Below are positions 2,074 to 64,000 of a stretch of 64,000 nt of DNA, piece after piece. Location of the stretch: the NCBI RefSeq assembly GCF_013122565.1, contig NZ_CP053258.1, one strand, 5' to 3'. Made by a program: the position numbers and the translations under genes. The notes beneath the pieces were generated by a model. It searched no databases. It saw only the letters and a list, made by a program, of their open reading frames with translations, and was not told the origin of the DNA. Position 1 is the stretch's first letter, and the number at the start of each line of letters is the position of its first letter. The stretch is from Escherichia coli (GTDB lineage: Bacteria; Pseudomonadota; Gammaproteobacteria; Enterobacterales; Enterobacteriaceae).

Positions 2074-2161
2074 CCCAGAGGTATTGATTGGTGAGATTAT
2101 TCGGTACGCTCTTCGTACCCTGTCTCTTGCACCAACCTGCGCGGATGCGCAGGTTTTTTTT
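2074..2161 (+). ncRNA. omrA: OmrA small RNA (RygA), 88 nt
   Basis: Starts CCCAGAGGTATTGATTGGTGAG and ends CTGCGCGGATGCGCAGG plus T-run; 88 nt and 88 nt upstream of the aas start, as I recall for K-12. Confidence 0.85.
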
Positions 2162-36062: not shown

Positions 36063-36139
<77 letters not shown>

Positions 36140-36357
36140 CCACCCCGCGTCCGTGGATGCGCACTATACTCCGCTCGCGTTTTCATGCAACCTTTTTTTT
36201 ACCCCGATCACGGTTCTGGCATGATTTTGAACAAAAACAAATCACTAAAGCCTATTTTTTGTGCAAAATTTGCGTCAGGGAGAGGCTGCTCATTTCATTA
36301 AACGCGGCGGTTTGTTATCTTCGTTGCGCCTTATTTTTTAACCTGAAGAAGAGAACA

Positions 36358-37543: not shown

Positions 37544-37641
37544 GCCGGATGCGGCGTGAACGCCTTATCCGGCCTACAAATCATGCAAATCCAAAATATT
37601 GCAGGAGTTATGTAGGCCTGATAAGCGTAGCGCATCAGGCA
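37544..37641. repeat. BIME: two inverted REP elements
   Basis: GCCGGATGCGGCGTGAACGCCTTATCCGGCCTACA (37544-37578) and the inverted copy TGTAGGCCTGATAAGCGTAGCGCATCAGGCA (37611-37641). Confidence 0.75.
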
Positions 37642-40634: not shown

Positions 40635-40840
40635 AAAAAAAAGCACCGCAATTAGGCGGTGCTACATTAATCACTATGGACAGACAGGGTAAATGTACAG
40701 GAAGTGAAAAAAGGTAGCTTTGCTACCATGGTCTGAATCGCAGACCAATTGCAAACACAACAACACAACATCACAACCGTAAGCCAAAAGTTCACCAGAA
40801 CACGCATTCCGATAAAACTTTTCGTTCCGGCTCAGGAAGT
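40635..40840 (-). ncRNA. gcvB: GcvB small RNA
   Basis: Minus-strand read begins ACTTCCTGAGCCGGAACGAAAAGTTTTATCGG and ends GCACCGCCTAATTGCGGTGC plus U-run; includes the GT-rich stretch TGTTGTGTTGTTGTGTT; 206 nt, divergent from gcvA. Confidence 0.88.
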
Positions 40841-51725: not shown

Positions 51726-52592
<867 letters not shown>

Positions 52593-53960
52593 TTAATCGC
52601 AGGCAACGATCTTCATTGCCAGGCCGCCGCGAGAGGTTTCGCGGTACTTGGCATTCATATCTTTACCTGTTTCGTACATGGTTTCGATAACTTTATCGAG
52701 GCAGACGCGCGGCTCGCTGGTACGGCGCAGCGCCATACGTGCGGCGTTCACCGCTTTTACTGCCGCAATGGCGTTACGCTCGATGCATGGCACCTGTACC
52801 TGTCCGGCAACCGGGTCACACGTCAGACCGAGGTTGTGCTCCATGGCGATTTCCGCCGCGATGCACACCTGCGCCGGGCTTGCACCTAACAGTTCTGCCA
52901 GACCAGCCGCCGCCATTGAACACGCCACGCCAACTTCACCCTGGCAACCCACTTCAGCACCAGAAATCGACGCGTTCATCTTATAAAGAGAACCAATGGC
53001 GCTGGCTACCAGCAGGTAACGAGCCAGTGAGTTAGCGTTCACTTCGCGGATAAACTTGTCGTAGTACGCCAGCACTGCCGGGATAATCCCGCACGCACCG
53101 TTAGTCGGCGCAGTCACCACGCGTCCGCCAGCAGCGTTCTCTTCGTTCACTGCCAGTGCAAACATGTTGATCCAGTCAACAACCGCCATCGGGTCAGTGG
53201 TGGTTTTATCCTGGCTGACCAGCATCCGGCGTAGTGCCGCAGCACGGCGTGGAACGCGCAGTTTGCCAGGCAACACGCCTTCGGTGGAAATACCGCGCTC
53301 AATACCGCCACGCATGACTTCCCATACGTTCGCCAGGTGCTGTTCCAGCTCTTCTTTGCTGTGCAGCGCCAGCTCGTTTTTCATCATCAAGCCAGAGAGT
53401 GACAGCCCGGTTTCCTGACAATGTTTTTGCAGATCGGCTGCTGAACTGTACGGATAAGGAACTTCAACCGGTGCGCTATTCTGCTGGCCAAAATGCTCTT
53501 CATCAACGATAAAGCCACCGCCAATAGAGTAGTAAGTCTGGCTGTAAACGACTTTATCGCCCGCCAGCGCGGTAATGCGCATACCGTTTTCATGCAGAGA
53601 AAGGTTGTCGGCATGGAAGTTCATGCACTGATCAACCGGGAACTCCACTTCATGCTGACCGTTTGCCAGCATCAGGCGACCATGAGTATTCACATCCTGA
53701 ATAAAACCAGGGATGGAATCGATATCCACGGTATCCGGCAGGTTACCCGCCAGGCCCATAATAATGGCGATATCAGTGTGGTGGCCTTTACCGGTCAGAG
53801 AGAGCGAGCCGTACACGTCAACCACCACGCGGGTCACGTCTTTAAGCAGGTTACGGGCAATCAGATCGTCGGTAAATTGTTTACCCGCTTTCATTGGTCC
53901 AACGGTATGAGAACTGGAAGGGCCAATGCCGATTTTGAAAATATCGAATACGCTAATCAT
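52593..53960 (-). CDS. sdaB: L-serine dehydratase 2
   Basis: 455 aa; Fe-S serine dehydratase family; downstream of sdaC. Confidence 0.92.
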
Positions 53961-54017
53961 AGGAAATACATCGCGTTAAAACGGAGGAAGCGCCGCCCGA
54001 AAGCGGCGCGAAAGGAC

Positions 54018-55307
54018 TTAGCTGAACAGAGAGTAGAAGATTGCGGAGATTGCAATCAGACCCATCACGACAACGAATACGTTGCTGATGTGACCGCTGT
54101 ACTTACGCATTGCCGGTACTTTCTGAATTGCGTACATCGGCATCAGGAACAGGATCATCGCGATGATTGGGCCGCCCAGGGTTTCAATCATACCCAGGAT
54201 GCTCGGGTTCAGGGTGGCAACAATCCAGGTCGTTACCAGCATGAACAGCGCAGTGATACGGTTCAGCTTGTTGATTTCGATAGACTTACCTTTACCACGC
54301 AGAGATTTAATCACCATACCGTTGAAGCCTTCACGTGCGCCCAGGTAGTGGCCGAGGAAGGATTTGGTGATAGCGATAATCGCGATAATCGGAGCCATCC
54401 ACGCGATAACCGGTGCGTTAAAGTGGTTAGCCAGGTAAGACAGAATCGAGATGTTCTGCTCTTTAGCCGCAGCCAGGTCTGCCGGAGTCAGGCTCAGTAC
54501 ACAGCTGAAGACGAAGAACATTACGGTCAGCACCATCATGATGTGTGCGAATGCCAGGATCTTCGAGCATTTCTGTTCTGCCATATCGCCGTACTCTTCA
54601 CGCTTCGCAACGGCGAAAGAAGAGATGATCGGAGAGTGGTTGAACGAGAATACCATTACCGGAATTGCCAGCCACAGGGTCATCCACAGACCGTTTCCGG
54701 TTGCAGATGCAGTGTCCAGAGACAGCGTTTCCAGTGCTGCGCCGTTCCACTGCGGGATCAGGTACAGAGCCAGCAGCATCAGTACGCCAACAAACGGGAA
54801 CACCAGAATACTCATCGCTTTAACGATCATCTGCTCACCGAAGCGAACGATGGTCATCATACCCACGATCAGGATCAGCGACAGAATCGCACGCGGCGGT
54901 GGCGTCATACCCAGCTGGTGAGACATGAAGCTTTCAACTGTATTGGTGATTGCCACGCTATAAACCAGCAGGATCGGGTAGATAGCGAAGAAGTAGAGCA
55001 GGGTAATCAGTTTACCTGCGCCAATACCAAAGTGTTCTTCTACAACCTCGGTGATGTCTTCGCCCGGGTTTTTACCAGACAGTACGAAGCGAGTCAGGCC
55101 GCGGTGAGCAAAAAACGTCATCGGGAACGCAAGGATAGCCATGATGATCAGCGGGATCATACCGCCAACACCGGCGTTGATTGGCAGGAACAGCACGCCC
55201 GCGCCGATTGCCGTGCCGTAAAGGCCCAGCATCCACATGGTGTCTGTCTTGCGCCAGGCACTACGAGAGTCTTTCGACGCAATCGTGCTGGTTTGAGTCG
55301 TTTCCAT
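54018..55307 (-). CDS. sdaC: Serine:H+ symporter
   Basis: 429 aa hydrophobic transporter, HAAAP family. Confidence 0.92.
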
Positions 55308-55863
55308 CTATTTCTCCTGGAGGAATGCAAATAATTCAGCTTTTAGCCAGTTCAGCCCGGGAAGGTGCCTGACCGTAAAAATGAAATCTGTCTATCGGCG
55401 ATGGCTTAATCATTTACCGCCGTAATAATTTGAGGGCGGAAAGATACACACAAGTTATGTATCTATCAGTGATCTTGATCCCAAATACAATAATCTACTT
55501 GGAAGATAGATTATCCCAACGCTTTACTCTGTAAATCAAAAGTAAAAGAGAATTTAAGGGCAATATTTGCCCATTAAACGACATCTGACTTCTTCCGGGG
55601 CGCGCAATATATGTAGGTTGAACTGAAAAAATCAATACTTTTAGTTAATCATGGCGATAATTTCTTTTTCATAGCGATAAAATACGGTTTATGAAAATAG
55701 GGAAACGTTTGCGTTGCAACATAAATTGTATGACATATTAACTGTGATGATATTTGTCGCGTGAGGGTGGTAAGAAACATTCATATAACAAATGAAATGA
55801 GTTGATGAGTAAGTGACCAAAAACGAGAAAACCCGGCAACAAACGTCACCGGGGGAGGGGAGA

Positions 55864-57228
55864 TTACGTGCAGATTTCGTAGCAAGGGATGTAGGCTGAG
55901 CCTGGCAACTTCATACGATGCTGGGCAACAAAACCCTGTAGCAGGTCGTCCATACGACGCATAATCTCTTTATCGCCGTTGATTTTGTAAGGACCAAACT
56001 CTTCAATGGCGCGAATACCGACTTCTTTTACGTTACCCGCCACAATACCGGAGAACGCACGGCGCAGATCGGCAGCCAGCACTTCAACAGGTTGATCCGG
56101 GTAAAGCTTCAGATTAGCCATATTCTCGTGAGACGGCTCAAACGGCATTTGCAAATCTGGTGCAATGCGCATTGACCAGTTAAAGCTGTAAGCGTCACCA
56201 GTGTCGCGGCGATTTTCTTTCACCAGCGGCATCGATTTTTTCATCTGACGAGCGACTTCAGCGGCGTCATCAATGATGATGCGGTAATGGCGGCGCGCGT
56301 TTTCGCCCAGCGTATGTACGACAAACTCGTCCAGTACGCGGAAGTAGTCGGCGCTCTCTTTCGGGCCGGTGAGGATCAATGGTAAAACCTGATCTTTGTT
56401 GGCCGGGTTCATTAAAATTCCCAGCAAATACAGCAACTCTTCTGCCGTACCCACACCGCCAGGGAAGATAATGATGCCGTGAGCGATACGGACAAACGCT
56501 TCCAGACGTTTTTCGATATCCGGCATGATGATCAATTCGTTGACCAGCGGGTTAGGCGGTTCAGCGGCGATAATCGACGGCTCTGTCATACCAATAAAAC
56601 GACTGTCTTTGTAACGCTGCTGCGCGTGTCCGACCGCAGCACCTTTCATCGGCGCTTCCATCGCTCCCGGACCACAGCCGGTGCAGATATTCAGCTCACG
56701 CAGGCCCAGCTGGTTTCCGACGCGACGGGCATACAAATACTCATTTTCGTTAATTGAGTGACCGCCCCAGCAGACCACCATATTTGGCGCTTCACCCACA
56801 TGCAGCGCGCGAGCGTTACGCAAGATGGAAAAGACCAGGTTAGTGATGTGGACGGAGTTGTCGAGATTCAGGTTGGGAAAACGAACGGTATTATGGATTT
56901 GCCCGTAAACGAAGAGAATGTCTCGCAGAACCGCGAACAAGTTGGCCTGCAAAGCGCGAATAATTCGCCCATCGACAAAAGCCTCTTCCGGGGGATTAAT
57001 CAGTTCCAGCTTTACGCCGCGTTCACGGCGCAGGACGTTAATATCGAAATTTTCAAAACGAGACAGCAATTCTTTGCTGTTATCGGTCAAACTACCGGAG
57101 TTCAGTACGGCAAGTGAACAGTTGCGAAACAGTTGATAGAGGTCGCTGCTGGCGGTGCGTTTAAGCATATCCACTTCCAGCTGCGACAACATATCCATGG
57201 AGCCAAGCGGGCTAATATGTGTAATCAA
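55864..57228 (-). CDS. ppnN: Pyrimidine/purine nucleotide 5'-monophosphate nucleosidase (LOG-like)
   Basis: 454 aa; formerly ygdH; synteny. Confidence 0.88.
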
Positions 57229-57339
57229 GAAAAACTCCTTATGGGACGAATATCGTCATTCCCTTTGATTACAATAGCCCTGCCTGATGACCTTTCACAA
57301 CCTTCTGCGTGAATCCAGCACGCAAAATTGAGAAAAAAT

Positions 57340-58188
57340 TTATTGCCGAACCAGTCTTGTGGTCGATGGGACAAAATCGCTATTACTGCGCCACGGGTTA
57401 ATGTCCAGACCGCCACGACGGGTATAACGTGCGTAAACGCTCAATTTCTCTGGCTGGCAGAAGCGTAACAGGTCATTAAAGATGCGTTCCACGCACTGTT
57501 CGTGGAACTCGTTGTGATGACGGAATGAGACCAGGTAACGCAGCAGTTTTTCTCTGTCAATTTGGCGTCCACGATACTGAATTTGGATCGAACCCCAATC
57601 TGGTTGATGGGTGATCAGGCAGTTTGATTTCAGCAGGTGGCTGACAAGCGTCTCTTCCACTACTTTTTCACCACAGGTGGCATTCTCCAGATAGTCAGTA
57701 GTGAATTCATAGTTATCGATAGTGATATCCAGGTCATCAATGCAGGTGCCATTGAAATGACCTATCGGCTGGCCTTCCAGTTCATCAAGACGATATAACG
57801 CCACGCTAACCTTACCCTGAGCGCAAGTGCTTAAGTCGCGCTCCAGCGTCTGGCGCACCTCATCCCAGTTATTAAAACGCGTCTGGTTAAAACTGTTGAG
57901 ATAAAGCTTAAAACTCTTCGACTCAATCAGATTTACGCTGGTGTAATCAAGTTCAACGTGACCGACGGCGACCTGCGGCAAACCTTTCGCATTCAGCCAG
58001 GAAAGTTCATACAGCGTCCAGATATCCGTACCGTGAAAAGGCAGGTTATCCGCTTTCAGACCCAGCGGGTCGCGATTCAGGCTGCGTGGAACGCCTTGCA
58101 GTAGGCTGGCGTCATAGGTATCCCGGTAATCGGTTGATTTTCCAAGAGTCAGGCCCGCAAGTGCCTGATGGTTTGCATAAGAAGACAT
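57340..58188 (-). CDS. queF: NADPH-dependent 7-cyano-7-deazaguanine reductase
   Basis: 282 aa two-domain YqcD-type QueF; synteny. Confidence 0.9.
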
Positions 58189-58255
58189 GTTTCACCGTCA
58201 TAAACCAGATAAACTAAACGACAAGTGTATCTGGTTTAAGTGAAGAGAGAAATTA

Positions 58256-58801
58256 GTGGACGATTTGACCGCACAAGCCCTGAAAGATTTTACTGCACGC
58301 TACTGCGATGCGTGGCATGAAGAGCATAAAAGCTGGCCGTTAAGTGAGGAACTGTACGGCGTTCCTTCACCGTGCATTATTTCAACTACTGAAGATGCCG
58401 TATACTGGCAACCCCAGCCGTTTACCGGGGAACAAAATGTAAACGCGGTTGAACGCGCTTTTGATATTGTGATACAACCCACAATTCATACCTTTTATAC
58501 GACTCAGTTTGCCGGGGATATGCACGCGCAGTTTGGCGATATCAAACTGACATTGCTGCAAACCTGGAGTGAAGACGACTTCCGTCGGGTGCAGGAAAAT
58601 CTGATTGGTCATCTGGTGACTCAGAAAAGGCTAAAACTGCCGCCCACGCTATTTATCGCGACGCTGGAAGAAGAGTTAGAGGTCATCTCGGTGTGTAATC
58701 TCTCCGGTGAAGTGTGCAAAGAGACGCTGGGAACACGTAAACGGGCGCATTTAGCCTCAAATCTTGCGGAATTCCTTAATCAACTTAAGCCTCTTCTGTA
58801 A
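58256..58801 (+). CDS. syd: SecY-interacting protein Syd
   Basis: 181 aa; synteny. Confidence 0.88.
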
Positions 58802-59011
58802 TCCAAATACCCCATCTGGTTGTAAGAGATCTCTTACAGACTCTGTAGGAGATCGCCAGGAAATAAGCGAATACTTAAAAAGATAAGAATCGTTGTTTTC
58901 ATTTAAAAACAACATGTTGCTTGTTAATTCCTAACTTTCATATGAAATTTTCCTTAAGGCATTGTCTGTAAGCGCCTTGTAAGACTTCGCGAAAAAGACG
59001 ATTCTATCTTC

Positions 59012-59380
59012 GTCGACAGGGAGTCAGACAACGAAGTGAACATCAGGATGATGACACTTCTGAAGGACACACCAGGATGGTGTTTCAGGGAAAGGCTTCT
59101 GGATGAAGCGAAGAGGATGACGCAGGACGCGTTAAAGGACACCTCCAGGATGGAGAATGAGAACCGGTCAGGATGATCCGGTGGGTCAGGAAGGCCAGGG
59201 ACACTTCAGGATGAAGTATCACATCGGGGTGGTGTGAGCAGGAAGCAATAGTTCAGGATGAACGATTGGCCGCAAGGCCAGAGGAAAAGTTGTCAAGGAT
59301 GAGCAGGGAGCAACAAAAGTAGCTGGAATGCTGCGAAACGAACCGGGAGCACTGTGAATACAGTGCTCCCTTTTTTTATT
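59012..59380 (+). ncRNA. csrB: CsrB small RNA (CsrA-sequestering)
   Basis: About 369 nt with roughly 20 GGA motifs (CAGGATG, AGGACA and similar) and a 3' terminator GGGAGCACTGTGAATACAGTGCTCCC plus T-run; between syd and yqcC as in K-12; the 5' end is approximate within about 10 nt. Confidence 0.88.
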
Positions 59381-59422
59381 CCTGCTATCCTTCGCGGCAG
59401 TTTTTCTTATTGAGGTTGCTTT

Positions 59423-59752
59423 ATGACCACTCATGACCGCGTTCGTCTCCAGTTGCAGGCGCTTGAAGCGTTACTGCGTGAACATCAGCACTGGCGAAAC
59501 GATGAACCCCAGCCGCATCAATTTAACAGTACCCAACCGTTCTTTATGGACACCATGGAACCACTGGAGTGGTTGCAGTGGGTGCTGATCCCGCGAATGC
59601 ACGATTTGTTAAATAACAACCAGCCGTTACCGGGCGCTTTTGCTGTTGCACCCTATTATGAAATGGCGCTGGCGACGGACCATCCGCAACGCGCGCTTAT
59701 TCTGGCTGAGTTGGAAAAACTGGATGCTCTTTTTGCGGATGATGCGAGCTAA
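59423..59752 (+). CDS. yqcC: DUF446 family protein
   Basis: 109 aa; overlaps the truC start by 1 nt. Confidence 0.85.
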   Translation: MTTHDRVRLQLQALEALLREHQHWRNDEPQPHQFNSTQPFFMDTMEPLEWLQWVLIPRMHDLLNNNQPLPGAFAVAPYYEMALATDHPQRALILAELEKLDALFADDAS

Positions 59753-60534
59753 TGCTGGAAATACTCTATCAGGATGAATGGCTGGTTGCGGTAAATAAAC
59801 CCTCCGGCTGGCTGGTTCACCGCAGCTGGCTGGATCGCGACGAGAAAGTAGTGGTCATGCAAACCGTGCGTGACCAGATAGGCCAGCATGTTTTTACTGC
59901 TCATCGTCTGGACCGACCCACTTCTGGTGTGTTGTTGATGGGATTATCCAGCGAGGCCGGACGGCTGCTGGCACAACAGTTTGAACAGCACCAAATCCAG
60001 AAACGTTACCATGCGATTGTGCGCGGCTGGTTGATGGAAGAAGCGGTGCTGGATTATCCACTGGTGGAAGAACTGGACAAAATCGCTGATAAATTTGCCC
60101 GCGAAGATAAAGGCCCGCAGCCAGCAGTGACGCATTATCGCGGTCTGGCGACCGTAGAAATGCCGGTAGCGACCGGACGTTACCCGACCACGCGCTACGG
60201 CCTGGTGGAACTGGAGCCGAAAACCGGACGCAAACATCAGCTTCGCCGACATCTTGCCCATTTGCGTCATCCGATTATTGGCGATAGCAAACATGGCGAT
60301 TTACGCCAGAATCGCAGCGGTGCTGAGCATTTTGGTCTTCAGCGGTTAATGCTGCATGCCAGTCAGTTGTCATTGACGCATCCTTTTACTGGCGAGCCGC
60401 TGACTATTCACGCGGGCCTGGACGACACCTGGATGCAGGCGTTATCACAATTTGGCTGGCGCGGTCTGCTTCCTGAAAATGAAAGGGTTGAGTTCAGTGC
60501 GCCATCGGGTCAGGATGGAGAGATAAGTTCCTAA
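59752..60534 (+). CDS. truC: tRNA pseudouridine(65) synthase
   Basis: 260 aa; RluA-family motif [14 protein letters not shown]. Confidence 0.9.
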
Positions 60535-60551
60535 TCCAGGGAGAAAACGGT

Positions 60552-61001
60552 ATGGCGGAAATTGGTATTTTTGTCGGCACCATGTACGGAAATTCGCTGT
60601 TAGTGGCGGAAGAAGCAGAAGCAATTCTGACCGCACAGGGCCACAAAGCAACGGTATTTGAAGATCCTGAATTAAGCGACTGGCTGCCCTATCAGGATAA
60701 GTATGTTCTGGTGGTTACGTCCACGACCGGGCAGGGCGACCTTCCTGATAGCATTGTGCCGCTCTTTCAGGGAATCAAAGATAGTCTGGGCTTCCAGCCG
60801 AATCTGCGTTATGGCGTGATTGCGCTCGGCGACAGCAGTTATGTAAATTTCTGCAATGGCGGCAAACAGTTCGATGCCTTGTTGCAGGAACAGAGCGCTC
60901 AGCGGGTTGGCGAAATGCTGTTGATTGACGCCAGTGAGAACCCGGAACCGGAAACGGAATCAAATCCGTGGGTCGAACAGTGGGGCACGCTGTTGTCCTG
61001 A
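60552..61001 (+). CDS. yqcA: Flavodoxin-like protein
   Basis: 149 aa; flavodoxin-like N-terminus [15 protein letters not shown]. Confidence 0.88.
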
Positions 61002-61435
61002 TATGTTCAGCGAGCGGTAAATGCCGTTTTAGCGGTGCTGAATCGAATCTTTTCAGGCAAATGCCAGTAAAAACTGCTTCATAGCGCGGATTTTTACTGG
61101 CGTTTGCCTGGAGTCAAGCGATCCATTTCATACTCTTCTTTATTTCTTCGTTTTAACCCTTCCTTTCTTGTTCTTGTTTTCATTTCCGTGAAGTGGATTC
61201 CACCGTCCAGGGCTAATGCCAAAATCGGGCCTCATTGAACGCATTAATGTTGTGTTGTTGCACGGTGAGCCGCTATGGCGCGCTTTTTATACTGCTATTG
61301 CCAGATATAAACACGCGCCGTATTCGGCGAACGACCTATAAAAACGGCAAAAAACACCCTACGTCACCTCTGATTTCCTGGCGATGTCGCAGTCCAGAGT
61401 GAGCGTGGCTAACGCGAATTTTCAGGAGTGCAACA

Positions 61436-62788
61436 ATGAGTTCTTTAAGTCAGGCTGCGAGCAGTGTGGAAAAACGCACGAATGCTCGTTACTGGATAGT
61501 GGTGATGTTGTTTATCGTCACATCCTTCAACTACGGCGACCGCGCTACGCTTTCTATTGCCGGTTCGGAAATGGCCAAAGATATCGGCCTTGATCCCGTG
61601 GGAATGGGCTATGTGTTCTCTGCCTTCTCATGGGCTTATGTTATAGGGCAGATCCCTGGTGGTTGGTTGCTGGATCGTTTTGGTTCAAAACGCGTCTACT
61701 TCTGGTCGATCTTTATCTGGTCGATGTTTACCTTGCTGCAAGGCTTCGTCGATATCTTTAGTGGATTCGGCATTATCGTTGCCCTGTTTACTCTGCGCTT
61801 CCTGGTCGGGCTTGCTGAAGCGCCATCTTTCCCCGGCAACAGTCGCATTGTTGCGGCCTGGTTTCCGGCGCAGGAAAGGGGAACGGCGGTGTCGATTTTT
61901 AACTCCGCTCAATACTTCGCAACGGTGATCTTCGCGCCGATTATGGGCTGGCTGACGCATGAAGTGGGCTGGTCACACGTCTTCTTCTTTATGGGCGGTC
62001 TGGGCATTGTCATCAGCTTTATCTGGTTGAAAGTCATCCACGAGCCAAATCAACATCCGGGGGTAAATCAGAAAGAGCTGGAGTATATCGCCGCGGGTGG
62101 CGCGCTGATCAATATGGATCAGCAAAACACCAAAGTTAAAGTGCCATTCAGCGTGAAGTGGGGACAGATCAAACAACTGCTCGGGTCACGGATGATGATC
62201 GGCGTTTATATTGGTCAGTACTGTATCAACGCCCTGACTTACTTTTTCATTACCTGGTTCCCGGTTTATCTGGTGCAGGCGCGTGGGATGTCGATTCTGA
62301 AAGCGGGCTTTGTGGCTTCCGTTCCGGCGGTTTGCGGTTTTATCGGCGGTGTGCTGGGTGGGATTATTTCCGACTGGCTGATGCGCCGCACGGGATCGCT
62401 GAACATTGCGCGTAAAACACCGATCGTAATGGGCATGTTGCTGTCGATGGTGATGGTGTTCTGCAACTACGTCAACGTTGAGTGGATGATCATCGGCTTT
62501 ATGGCGCTGGCCTTCTTCGGTAAGGGCATCGGGGCGCTGGGTTGGGCAGTAATGGCAGATACCGCGCCAAAAGAGATCAGCGGTCTTTCAGGTGGCCTGT
62601 TCAACATGTTCGGTAACATTTCTGGCATCGTCACGCCAATCGCAATTGGTTATATCGTTGGCACGACTGGCTCGTTTAATGGGGCGCTGATTTATGTTGG
62701 TGTTCATGCCTTAATCGCGGTACTGAGCTACCTGGTACTGGTGGGCGATATCAAGCGTATCGAGCTGAAACCTGTCGCGGGGCAATAA
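61436..62788 (+). CDS. gudP: Glucarate/galactarate transporter (MFS)
   Basis: 450 aa; N-terminus [26 protein letters not shown] as I recall for GudP. Confidence 0.9.
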
Positions 62789-62789
62789 G

Positions 62790-64000
62790 ATGACGACACA
62801 ATCCAGTCCTGTTATTACTGATATGAAAGTCATTCCGGTCGCCGGACATGACAGCATGTTGCTCAATATTGGTGGTGCGCATAACGCATACTTCACCCGC
62901 AATATCGTGGTACTCACCGATAATGCCGGGCATACCAGCATTGGTGAAGCGCCGGGCGGAGAGGTGATTTATCAAACACTGGTCGAAGCTATTCCGATGG
63001 TGCTGGGCCAGGAAGTTGCGCGCCTGAATAAAGTGGTTCAGCAGGTGCATAAAGGTAATCAGGCCGCCGATTTTGATACCTTCGGTAAAGGTGCCTGGAC
63101 CTTTGAATTGCGCGTTAATACCGTGGCGGCGCTGGAAGCCGCCTTGCTTGACCTGCTAGGTAAGGCGCTGAATGTTCCGGTCTGCGAACTGTTAGGGCCA
63201 GGCAAGCAACGCGATGCTATTACCGTCCTCGGTTATCTGTTTTATATCGGTGATCGGACCAAAACCGATCTTCCTTATCTGGAAAATACGCCGGGCAACC
63301 ATGAGTGGTATCAGTTGCGCCATCAGAAAGCGATGAACAGCGAAGCCGTTGTGCGTCTGGCGGAAGCCTCACAGGATCGCTACGGCTTTAAAGATTTCAA
63401 ACTTAAGGGCGGCGTGTTACCTGGCGAGCAAGAAATCGACACTGTTCGTGCATTGAAGAAACGCTTCCCGGATGCGCGGATTACCGTTGATCCCAACGGT
63501 GCATGGCTGCTTGATGAAGCCATTTCTCTGTGCAAAGGGCTGAATGATGTTCTTACCTATGCCGAAGATCCATGCGGCGCAGAACAGGGCTTCTCCGGAC
63601 GTGAAGTGATGGCGGAGTTTCGGCGGGCGACCGGCTTGCCCGTCGCGACTAATATGATCGCCACCAACTGGCGCGAAATGGGTCATGCGGTGATGCTCAA
63701 TGCGGTAGATATTCCACTTGCCGATCCGCACTTCTGGACGCTTTCCGGTGCAGTCCGAGTGGCGCAGCTTTGCGACGACTGGGGGCTGACCTGGGGCTGC
63801 CATTCCAACAACCATTTCGATATCTCTCTGGCGATGTTTACCCATGTGGGCGCGGCGGCACCGGGTAATCCTACCGCTATCGATACCCACTGGATTTGGC
63901 AGGAGGGCGATTGTCGCCTGACCCAAAATCCGCTGGAGATTAAAAACGGAAAAATTGCCGTTCCTGATGCGCCCGGTCTGGGCGTGGAACTGGACTGGGA
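62790..64000 (+). CDS. gudX: Glucarate dehydratase-related protein, enolase superfamily (3' end outside the window)
   Basis: ATG at 62790 one nt after the gudP stop; open frame to the window edge (not in the ORF track because no stop is reached); begins [31 protein letters not shown]. Confidence 0.85.

Follow-up and report, generated by a model that had tools for sequence, protein, structure and literature searches.

The question raised by positions 59012-59380 of the DNA studied here is whether a stretch crowded with GGA triplets is the gene for the regulatory RNA CsrB, and whether that RNA would work as its counterpart in Escherichia coli K-12 does. In textbooks, csrB figures as a global regulator that acts through the protein CsrA on carbon storage, biofilm, motility and virulence. 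We refer to the whole 64-kb stretch that was analysed as the window; the genes csrA, barA, uvrY and csrD fall outside it. There is hardly any doubt that the plus strand of 59012-59380 is csrB, the CsrB small RNA gene of an E. coli-type chromosome. It is a well-known, ordinary gene, and its identification brings no new biology.

Identity and chromosomal setting

An earlier note on this DNA had read the locus as the CsrA-titrating small RNA CsrB and had set a search with the CsrB covariance model beforehand as the test that could refute this reading. An Rfam 15 scan of the whole window gave a match to RF00018 at 59021-59380 on the plus strand, with 384 bits and E = 1e-111 against a gathering score of 71. 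The match spans model positions 1-356 of 356 and is not truncated. The covariance model, the identity to K-12 b4408, synteny, the placement of the GGA triplets, covariation and the upstream UvrY repeat, each described below, all agree with the reading.

A gapless end-to-end alignment with K-12 csrB (b4408) shares 366 of 369 bases (99.2%), and the ends of the window's gene, 59012 and 59380, coincide with the ends of the K-12 annotation. In the K-12 MG1655 record, the ncRNA gene is found at NC_000913.3 complement 2924156..2924524, between yqcC and syd. The 369-nt sequence was found in 5,425 of 5,426 complete E. coli genomes, with a median of one per genome, and the exact allele of the window is carried by several of these complete genomes. 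K-12 and strain 2452 share with the window the gene order queF (on the minus strand), syd, csrB, yqcC, truC, yqcA, which the window presents in reverse orientation relative to K-12. The order syd, csrB, yqcC, truC, with queF divergent, is kept in 49 of 49 Enterobacterales loci, as far as their contigs reach. Coordinates of the features discussed are collected in Table 1.

Table 1. Features of the csrB locus, its neighbours and other RNA genes in the 64-kb window
Feature	Position	Strand	Basis
csrB, non-coding CsrB RNA, 369 nt, 22 GGA	59012..59380	+	RF00018, K-12 identity, GGA count, fold
queF	57340-58188	-	flanking ORF
syd	58256-58801	+	flanking ORF
yqcC	59423-59752	+	flanking ORF
truC	59752-60534	+	flanking ORF
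yqcA	60552-61001	+	flanking ORF
18-bp inverted repeat TGTAAGAGATCTCTTACA, predicted UvrY-P site	58821..58838	.	pattern and PMC4682653 position
Partial extra repeat TGTAGGAGA	58844..58852	+	read from sequence
IHF-consensus-like AAACAACATGTTGCTT, putative	58907..58922	.	pattern search, between UvrY box and promoter
Putative weak sigma-70 promoter, TTGTAA-17 nt-GATTCT	58977..59005	+	by eye from +1 position
Segment absent from shorter RNAs (A1 columns 316-372)	59219-59265		alignment A1
GGA sites 18-21 (59283, 59297, 59307, 59325)	59283..59327	+	numbering per PMC5027483
Unstructured GAAACGAACC with RNase E "necessary cleavage site"	59336..59344	+	PMC5027483 positions, +1 = 59012
Intrinsic terminator, stem GGGAGCACTGT/ACAGTGCTCCC, loop GAAT, T7	59345..59380	+	terminator scan, inverted-repeat search
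OmrA/OmrB tandem	1877-1958, 2074-2161	+	Rfam, 86 and 97 bits, reach gathering scores
ES036/CssrF	37577-37619	+	Rfam, 46.5 bits, reaches gathering score
GcvB	40635-40840	-	Rfam, 199 bits, reaches gathering score

Strand and 3' end

The strong terminator claimed at the end of the RNA was found by the terminator scan as an 11-bp hairpin followed by seven T. The stem pairs 59345-59355 with 59360-59370, has 7 G-C pairs and a 4-nt loop, and is followed by TTTTTTTATT. Among the 50 aligned sequences described below, this helix (helix 16) is 99.2% paired, with four pairs changed on both sides.

The competing explanation that survives best, although we consider it very improbable, is that the minus strand supplies the product, or that the region is a long 5' leader of yqcC and not an independent RNA. 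The minus strand does fold well (z = -7.9), as expected because the hairpins are symmetric, but the Rfam match is on the plus strand only, the minus strand would show UCC instead of GGA, and the T-run of the terminator is on the plus strand, the same hairpin on the other strand being followed by GGTTCGTTTC. We rejected a minus-strand gene, finding no terminator tail, Rfam match or GGA on that strand. As for a leader, yqcC starts at 59423, only 43 nt past the T-run and on the same strand, and there may be some read-through of the terminator into yqcC; the K-12 annotation and published 3' RACE and decay mapping, however, end the RNA at the terminator (PMC5027483). We continue with csrB as an independent RNA read from the plus strand.

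GGA motifs

The earlier note had estimated roughly 20 to 22 GGA; we counted 22 in 59012-59380, with 21 inside the Rfam match. K-12 CsrB has 22 numbered GGA sites, site 22 being in the terminator (PMC5027483). By the same numbering all 22 positions are the same in the window, and site 22 again lies in the terminator, at 59346. The three motifs that had been singled out are all present (CAGGATG in 6 copies, AGGACA in 2 and AGGAAG in 2), CAGGA(T/A/C)G occurs 9 times, and AGGA accounts for 14 of the 22 triplets. On the plus strand elsewhere in the 64 kb, a 369-nt stretch holds a mean of 4.8 GGA (sd 2.4). The maximum is 22 on the plus strand, at the csrB locus, and 16 on the minus strand, making csrB the most GGA-dense 369-nt segment of the window, whichever strand is read.

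csrB consists largely of G and A (118 G, 112 A, 65 C, 65 T), and for this reason a shuffled csrB is still rich in GGA: dinucleotide-preserving shuffles of the region contain 14.6 +/- 2.5 GGA, and the 22 observed are only about 2.6 sd above them. The motif CAGGAHG, by comparison, was observed 9 times against 0.26 expected, with a maximum of 3 in 1000 shuffles. The statistical weight rests on CAGGAHG together with the structure and not on the raw GGA count. The SELEX consensus RUACARGGAUGU had no match in the csrB RNA with up to two mismatches allowed, but this consensus is not useful as a membership test, since the natural sites are of the shorter CAGGA(U/A/C)G type.

A GGA-rich stretch of this kind might also be degenerate repeat DNA, whether tandem or dispersed, or a group of short protein-coding ORFs, and not a structured RNA gene at all, a reading to which we give next to no credence. 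Its attraction is that a repeat search of csrB does return families built around TCAGGATGA, that mechanical ORFs overlap the locus (46 aa on the plus strand; 45, 62 and 71 aa on the minus strand), and that AGGA resembles a Shine-Dalgarno sequence. The families are only short (10-25 nt) and dispersed, however, and Tandem Repeats Finder, run over 58900-59500 at its lowest score (30), reported no array. The motifs had earlier been called periodic, which is right insofar as they are loosely repeated, but the distance from one GGA to the next varies from 4 to 32 nt (median 14) and they form no tandem array. Evidence from relatives, given below, bears on the ORFs.

RNA fold and exposure of the GGA sites

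The plus-strand RNA has a minimum free energy of -122.7 kcal/mol (z = -4.8 against shuffles). To place the GGA sites, we transferred the Rfam consensus structure onto window coordinates. Counting GGA in predicted hairpin loops had been suggested as a check on the assignment, and the consensus structure puts 11 in hairpin loops (59046, 59075, 59101, 59125, 59148, 59171, 59189, 59209, 59241, 59297 and 59325) and 8 in single-stranded linkers. One more, at 59020, is upstream of the start of the Rfam model, and only 59152 and 59346, the latter in the terminator, are buried in stems. The thermodynamic fold agrees with this placement and adds the GGA at 59256 as a twelfth in a hairpin loop. An unpaired probability of at least 0.65 is predicted for 19 of the 22 GGA.

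Conservation among the Enterobacterales

Relatives were collected by scanning one genome per species with an 18-nt exact seed, AAGGATGAGCAGGGAGCA, from the conserved 3' part of csrB. The scan returned 79 loci, about 55 of which are Enterobacterales csrB with alignment scores above 80. About 24 of the 79, with alignment scores below 30, were discarded as chance matches in unrelated phyla. Fifty sequences, that of the window among them, were aligned by MAFFT without reference to structure (alignment A1), and a structure of 77 base pairs, made up of the Rfam hairpins and four additional local hairpins taken from the fold, was tested against it. Pairing is found in 91.0% of cells and falls to 35.6-50.9% if the 3' partners are displaced by 1-3 columns, a comparison in which a structure derived from the window and Rfam favours the observed pairings over the slid ones. 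Both sides have changed in 51 of the 77 pairs, and none of 500 shuffles reaches any of the five measures. The hairpins of csrB are kept by compensatory changes across the Enterobacterales.

The CsrB RNAs of these relatives contain 19-28 GGA (median 22.5), and most of the individual GGA sites are retained in 72-100% of the A1 sequences. In A1 there is hardly any variation in the 3' third of the RNA, which runs from GGA site 18 to the terminator. GGA is present at sites 19-21 in 100% of the 50 sequences, although sites 19 and 20 are inside the search seed; as the seed lies within the RNA, the invariance of these two sites and of helix 14 is partly by construction.

No reading frame is conserved in the same manner. 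The 46-codon ORF at 59036-59176, the sole plus-strand ORF of any size, is interrupted or shifted in 42 of the 49 relatives, and the longest ORF in the relatives' csrB ranges from 21 to 84 codons without constancy. The substitutions preserve base pairs and not codons, which together with the full-length 384-bit model match speaks against a repeat or an ORF cluster; csrB is non-coding. The earlier note's warning that the repetitive structure might be taken for a tandem repeat or a short-ORF region is reasonable, but the danger proves harmless here, with no array reported and no ORF conserved.

The CsrB or RsmB RNAs (RF00018) of other Enterobacterales, such as Citrobacter, Kosakonia, Erwinia, Pantoea, Edwardsiella and Serratia, share with the window the position between syd and yqcC, the hairpins and a UvrY-type box. 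Those of Erwinia, Pantoea, Mixta, Izhakiella, Winslowiella and CwR94 measure only 307-329 nt, compared with 369 in the window, and are without GGA sites 16-17 and the CACAUCGGGGUGGUGUG hairpin that the Escherichia-type RNA has.

Two of the loci found by the scan are unusual. Enterobacillus tribolii DSM 103736 (NZ_QRAP01000005.1, 7700-9299 of the extracted locus L081) has three full-length copies of csrB in tandem, all in one orientation and spaced by about 610 nt; every copy scores 232-239 bits against RF00018 and contains 27-28 GGA. The array lies between syd and yqcC, as the single csrB does elsewhere. We know of no described tandem triplication of csrB. The other is NZ_PVBT01000018.1 (locus L075), a 797-nt contig from an alphaproteobacterial assembly labelled Phyllobacterium myrsinacearum, which bears an E. 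coli-like csrB with an alignment score of 310 to the window RNA over the available 343 nt. This copy is most likely contamination of the Phyllobacterium assembly.

Relation to other sponge RNAs

That the locus is the paralogue CsrC or another member of the Csr/Rsm clan would fit the shared architecture of GGA hairpins and terminator and the common Rfam clan (CL00106), but it is scarcely credible given that CsrB is the best-scoring clan family at the locus, over all 356 positions, and that both the 99.2% identity to b4408 and the position between syd and yqcC are those of csrB. CsrC, of about 245 nt, is located elsewhere on the chromosome. Both it and the Pseudomonas RNAs RsmY, RsmZ and RsmX are shorter than CsrB, with fewer sites. 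These RNAs resemble CsrB in being GGA-hairpin RNAs that sequester CsrA or RsmA and in being under a response regulator of the GacA/UvrY type, but they belong to separate families at other loci (PMC7652899; PMC4682653). They also differ in control: IHF is needed for csrB and not for csrC (PMC4682653), and Pseudomonas is without CsrD, its sponge RNAs being long-lived (PMC7652899; PMC5027483).

Elements for turnover

The published work on decay of K-12 CsrB can be carried over to the window position by position. In K-12, GGA site 19 is at nt 286-288 and the loop of site 21 at nt 313-318, sites 18-21 have been studied by in-line probing, CsrA bound at sites 20 and 21 shields the RNA from RNase E, and RNase E cleaves at A327 and A331 (PMC5027483). 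The last two correspond to 59338 and 59342, and both are A in the window. The GAAACGAACC segment that contains them is nearly invariant in A1. There are zero differences from K-12 within 59179-59350, an interval that covers GGA sites 18-21 as well as A327 and A331.

Upstream regulatory DNA

The pattern TGTRAGN6CTYACA has a single match in the 64-kb window, the 18-bp inverted repeat upstream of csrB, with its centre at -183/-182 relative to a +1 at 59012. Phosphorylated UvrY has been shown to footprint the 18-nt inverted repeat TGTGAGAGATCTCTTACA of E. coli csrB, with the same centre, and a partial repeat is described 5 bp downstream of it, where we read TGTAGGAGA (PMC4682653). A UvrY-type box is present upstream of csrB, at a distance that corresponds to the one here, in all 47 related loci that have enough upstream DNA.

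Between this box and the promoter, AAACAACATGTTGCTT has one mismatch to WATCAANNNNTTR on each strand, which suggests an IHF site. For csrB, PMC4682653 places a putative IHF site between the two regions where UvrY crosslinks and gives an approximately 10-fold dependence on IHF.

The csrB promoter is probably the weak sigma-70 sequence listed in Table 1, whose hexamer GATTCT ends 6 nt upstream of +1. A sigma-70 consensus scan of 58600-59600 detected no promoter at threshold; the lack of a consensus promoter might be expected of an activator-dependent promoter such as that of csrB. Two TGTAAG sequences, at -45 and -34, are candidate half-sites for UvrY and fall within the promoter-proximal crosslinking zone published for E. 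coli csrB, -56 to +25 (PMC4682653). Like the promoter, the half-sites are assigned from their sequence and position.

Differences from K-12

The window csrB and the K-12 gene have the same length, ends, strand relative to their neighbours, terminator, UvrY box position, RNase E sites and flanking syd and yqcC genes. Three substitutions separate the RNAs. At nt 52 (59063), C is replaced by A, changing CAGGACA to AAGGACA directly 5' of GGA site 3 with the GGA kept. At nt 167 (59178), U to C turns a G-U pair into G-C in the hairpin of GGA site 12, and at nt 340 (59351), G to A turns a G-U pair into A-U in the terminator stem. The structure accommodates all three, pairing being kept or tightened, and most relatives have A at nt 340, K-12 being the odd one.

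A further difference is in the UvrY box, where position 58824 is A in the window and G in K-12. With A, the box becomes a perfect 18-bp palindrome and matches the idealised consensus TGTAAGN6CTTACA exactly. In megablast, a 55-nt query with the A of 58824 at its centre had 0 matches among 5,425 complete E. coli genomes, whereas a control query of the same length with G matched 5,424, and a 91-nt query around the position was 98.9% identical in every complete E. coli genome. From these three queries, the A allele is absent from the complete-genome collection. A is found at the corresponding position of the box in other genera (RIT691, Erwinia OLFS4 and Enterobacillus).

How much weight to give this allele depends on the lineage. 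Over the 12 kb at 52000-64000, where the gene order is that of K-12, the closest match to the window among 5,426 complete E. coli genomes reaches only 99.3% identity; judged from this comparison, the source is an Escherichia/Shigella-type lineage poorly represented in the complete E. coli collection. Private SNPs are to be expected where the nearest complete genome is this distant, and for the same reason we do not treat the SNP at 58824 as significant. It is unlikely, in our estimation, that the change from G to A is a lineage-specific up-mutation of csrB transcription which, with the stem-tightening changes, perhaps shifts the CsrA set-point. Such a shift, produced by 58824 A and the two stem-tightening changes in the RNA, would if true affect biofilm, motility and carbon storage. 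The A could just as well be a private SNP without effect, or an error in sequencing.

Across the syd-csrB-yqcC region the window differs from K-12 at 18 positions, and five of these (58895, 58909, 58913, 58920 and 58931) cluster within 37 bp. This cluster is in A+T-rich DNA upstream of csrB and overlaps the IHF-like sequence.

Proposed mechanism

Since every element listed above is present and unchanged, we infer for the window csrB the mechanism established in K-12, and we would be surprised if it were any other. Transcription of the plus strand would begin at 59012 and stop at the intrinsic terminator (59345-59377). The RNA folds as a string of short hairpins, showing its GGA triplets, mostly as CAGGA(U/A/C)G, in loops and linkers, and each GGA would bind one face of a CsrA dimer, according to the literature on the near-identical K-12 RNA. 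One CsrB molecule is reported to hold about 18 CsrA subunits by means of CAGGA(U/A/C)G in loops and single-stranded regions, sequestering CsrA away from mRNAs (PMC7652899). The window's CsrB probably sequesters multiple CsrA dimers in the same way, and by withdrawing CsrA from its lower-affinity mRNA targets it would relieve CsrA-dependent repression or activation.

Synthesis would be switched on by BarA-UvrY, with phosphorylated UvrY acting at the 18-bp repeat 183 bp upstream and IHF assisting; csrB transcription is known to depend on both BarA-UvrY and IHF (PMC4682653). Decay would begin with an RNase E cut in the unstructured segment just 5' of the terminator. The block to this cleavage by CsrA at sites 20 and 21 is released by CsrD and EIIA-Glc (PMC5027483; PMC7652899), and in the window's host CsrD and unphosphorylated EIIA-Glc would be expected to overcome it when a preferred carbon source is present.

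Annotation of csrB and other RNAs in the window

In PGAP-annotated complete E. coli genomes, a query with csrB only found no feature under it ("none"), and a wider 601-nt query in RefSeq E. coli records found only yqcC annotated. The feature table of strain 2452 has no row for csrB, while the K-12 reference has an ncRNA feature. csrB is systematically unannotated in most RefSeq E. coli records. Labelling it matters for annotation only, and recognizing it from the sequence avoids spurious short-ORF or repeat calls.

Other RNA genes recognized by Rfam in the window are included in Table 1. In addition, the window has a single initiator-type tRNA-Met (CAU) gene at 36073-36149 on the minus strand. 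K-12 has three tandem tRNA-Met copies, metZ, metW and metV, beside mltA and amiC. If the window's tRNA gene is at the same position, this suggests a difference in copy number arising in this lineage by recombination between the repeats.
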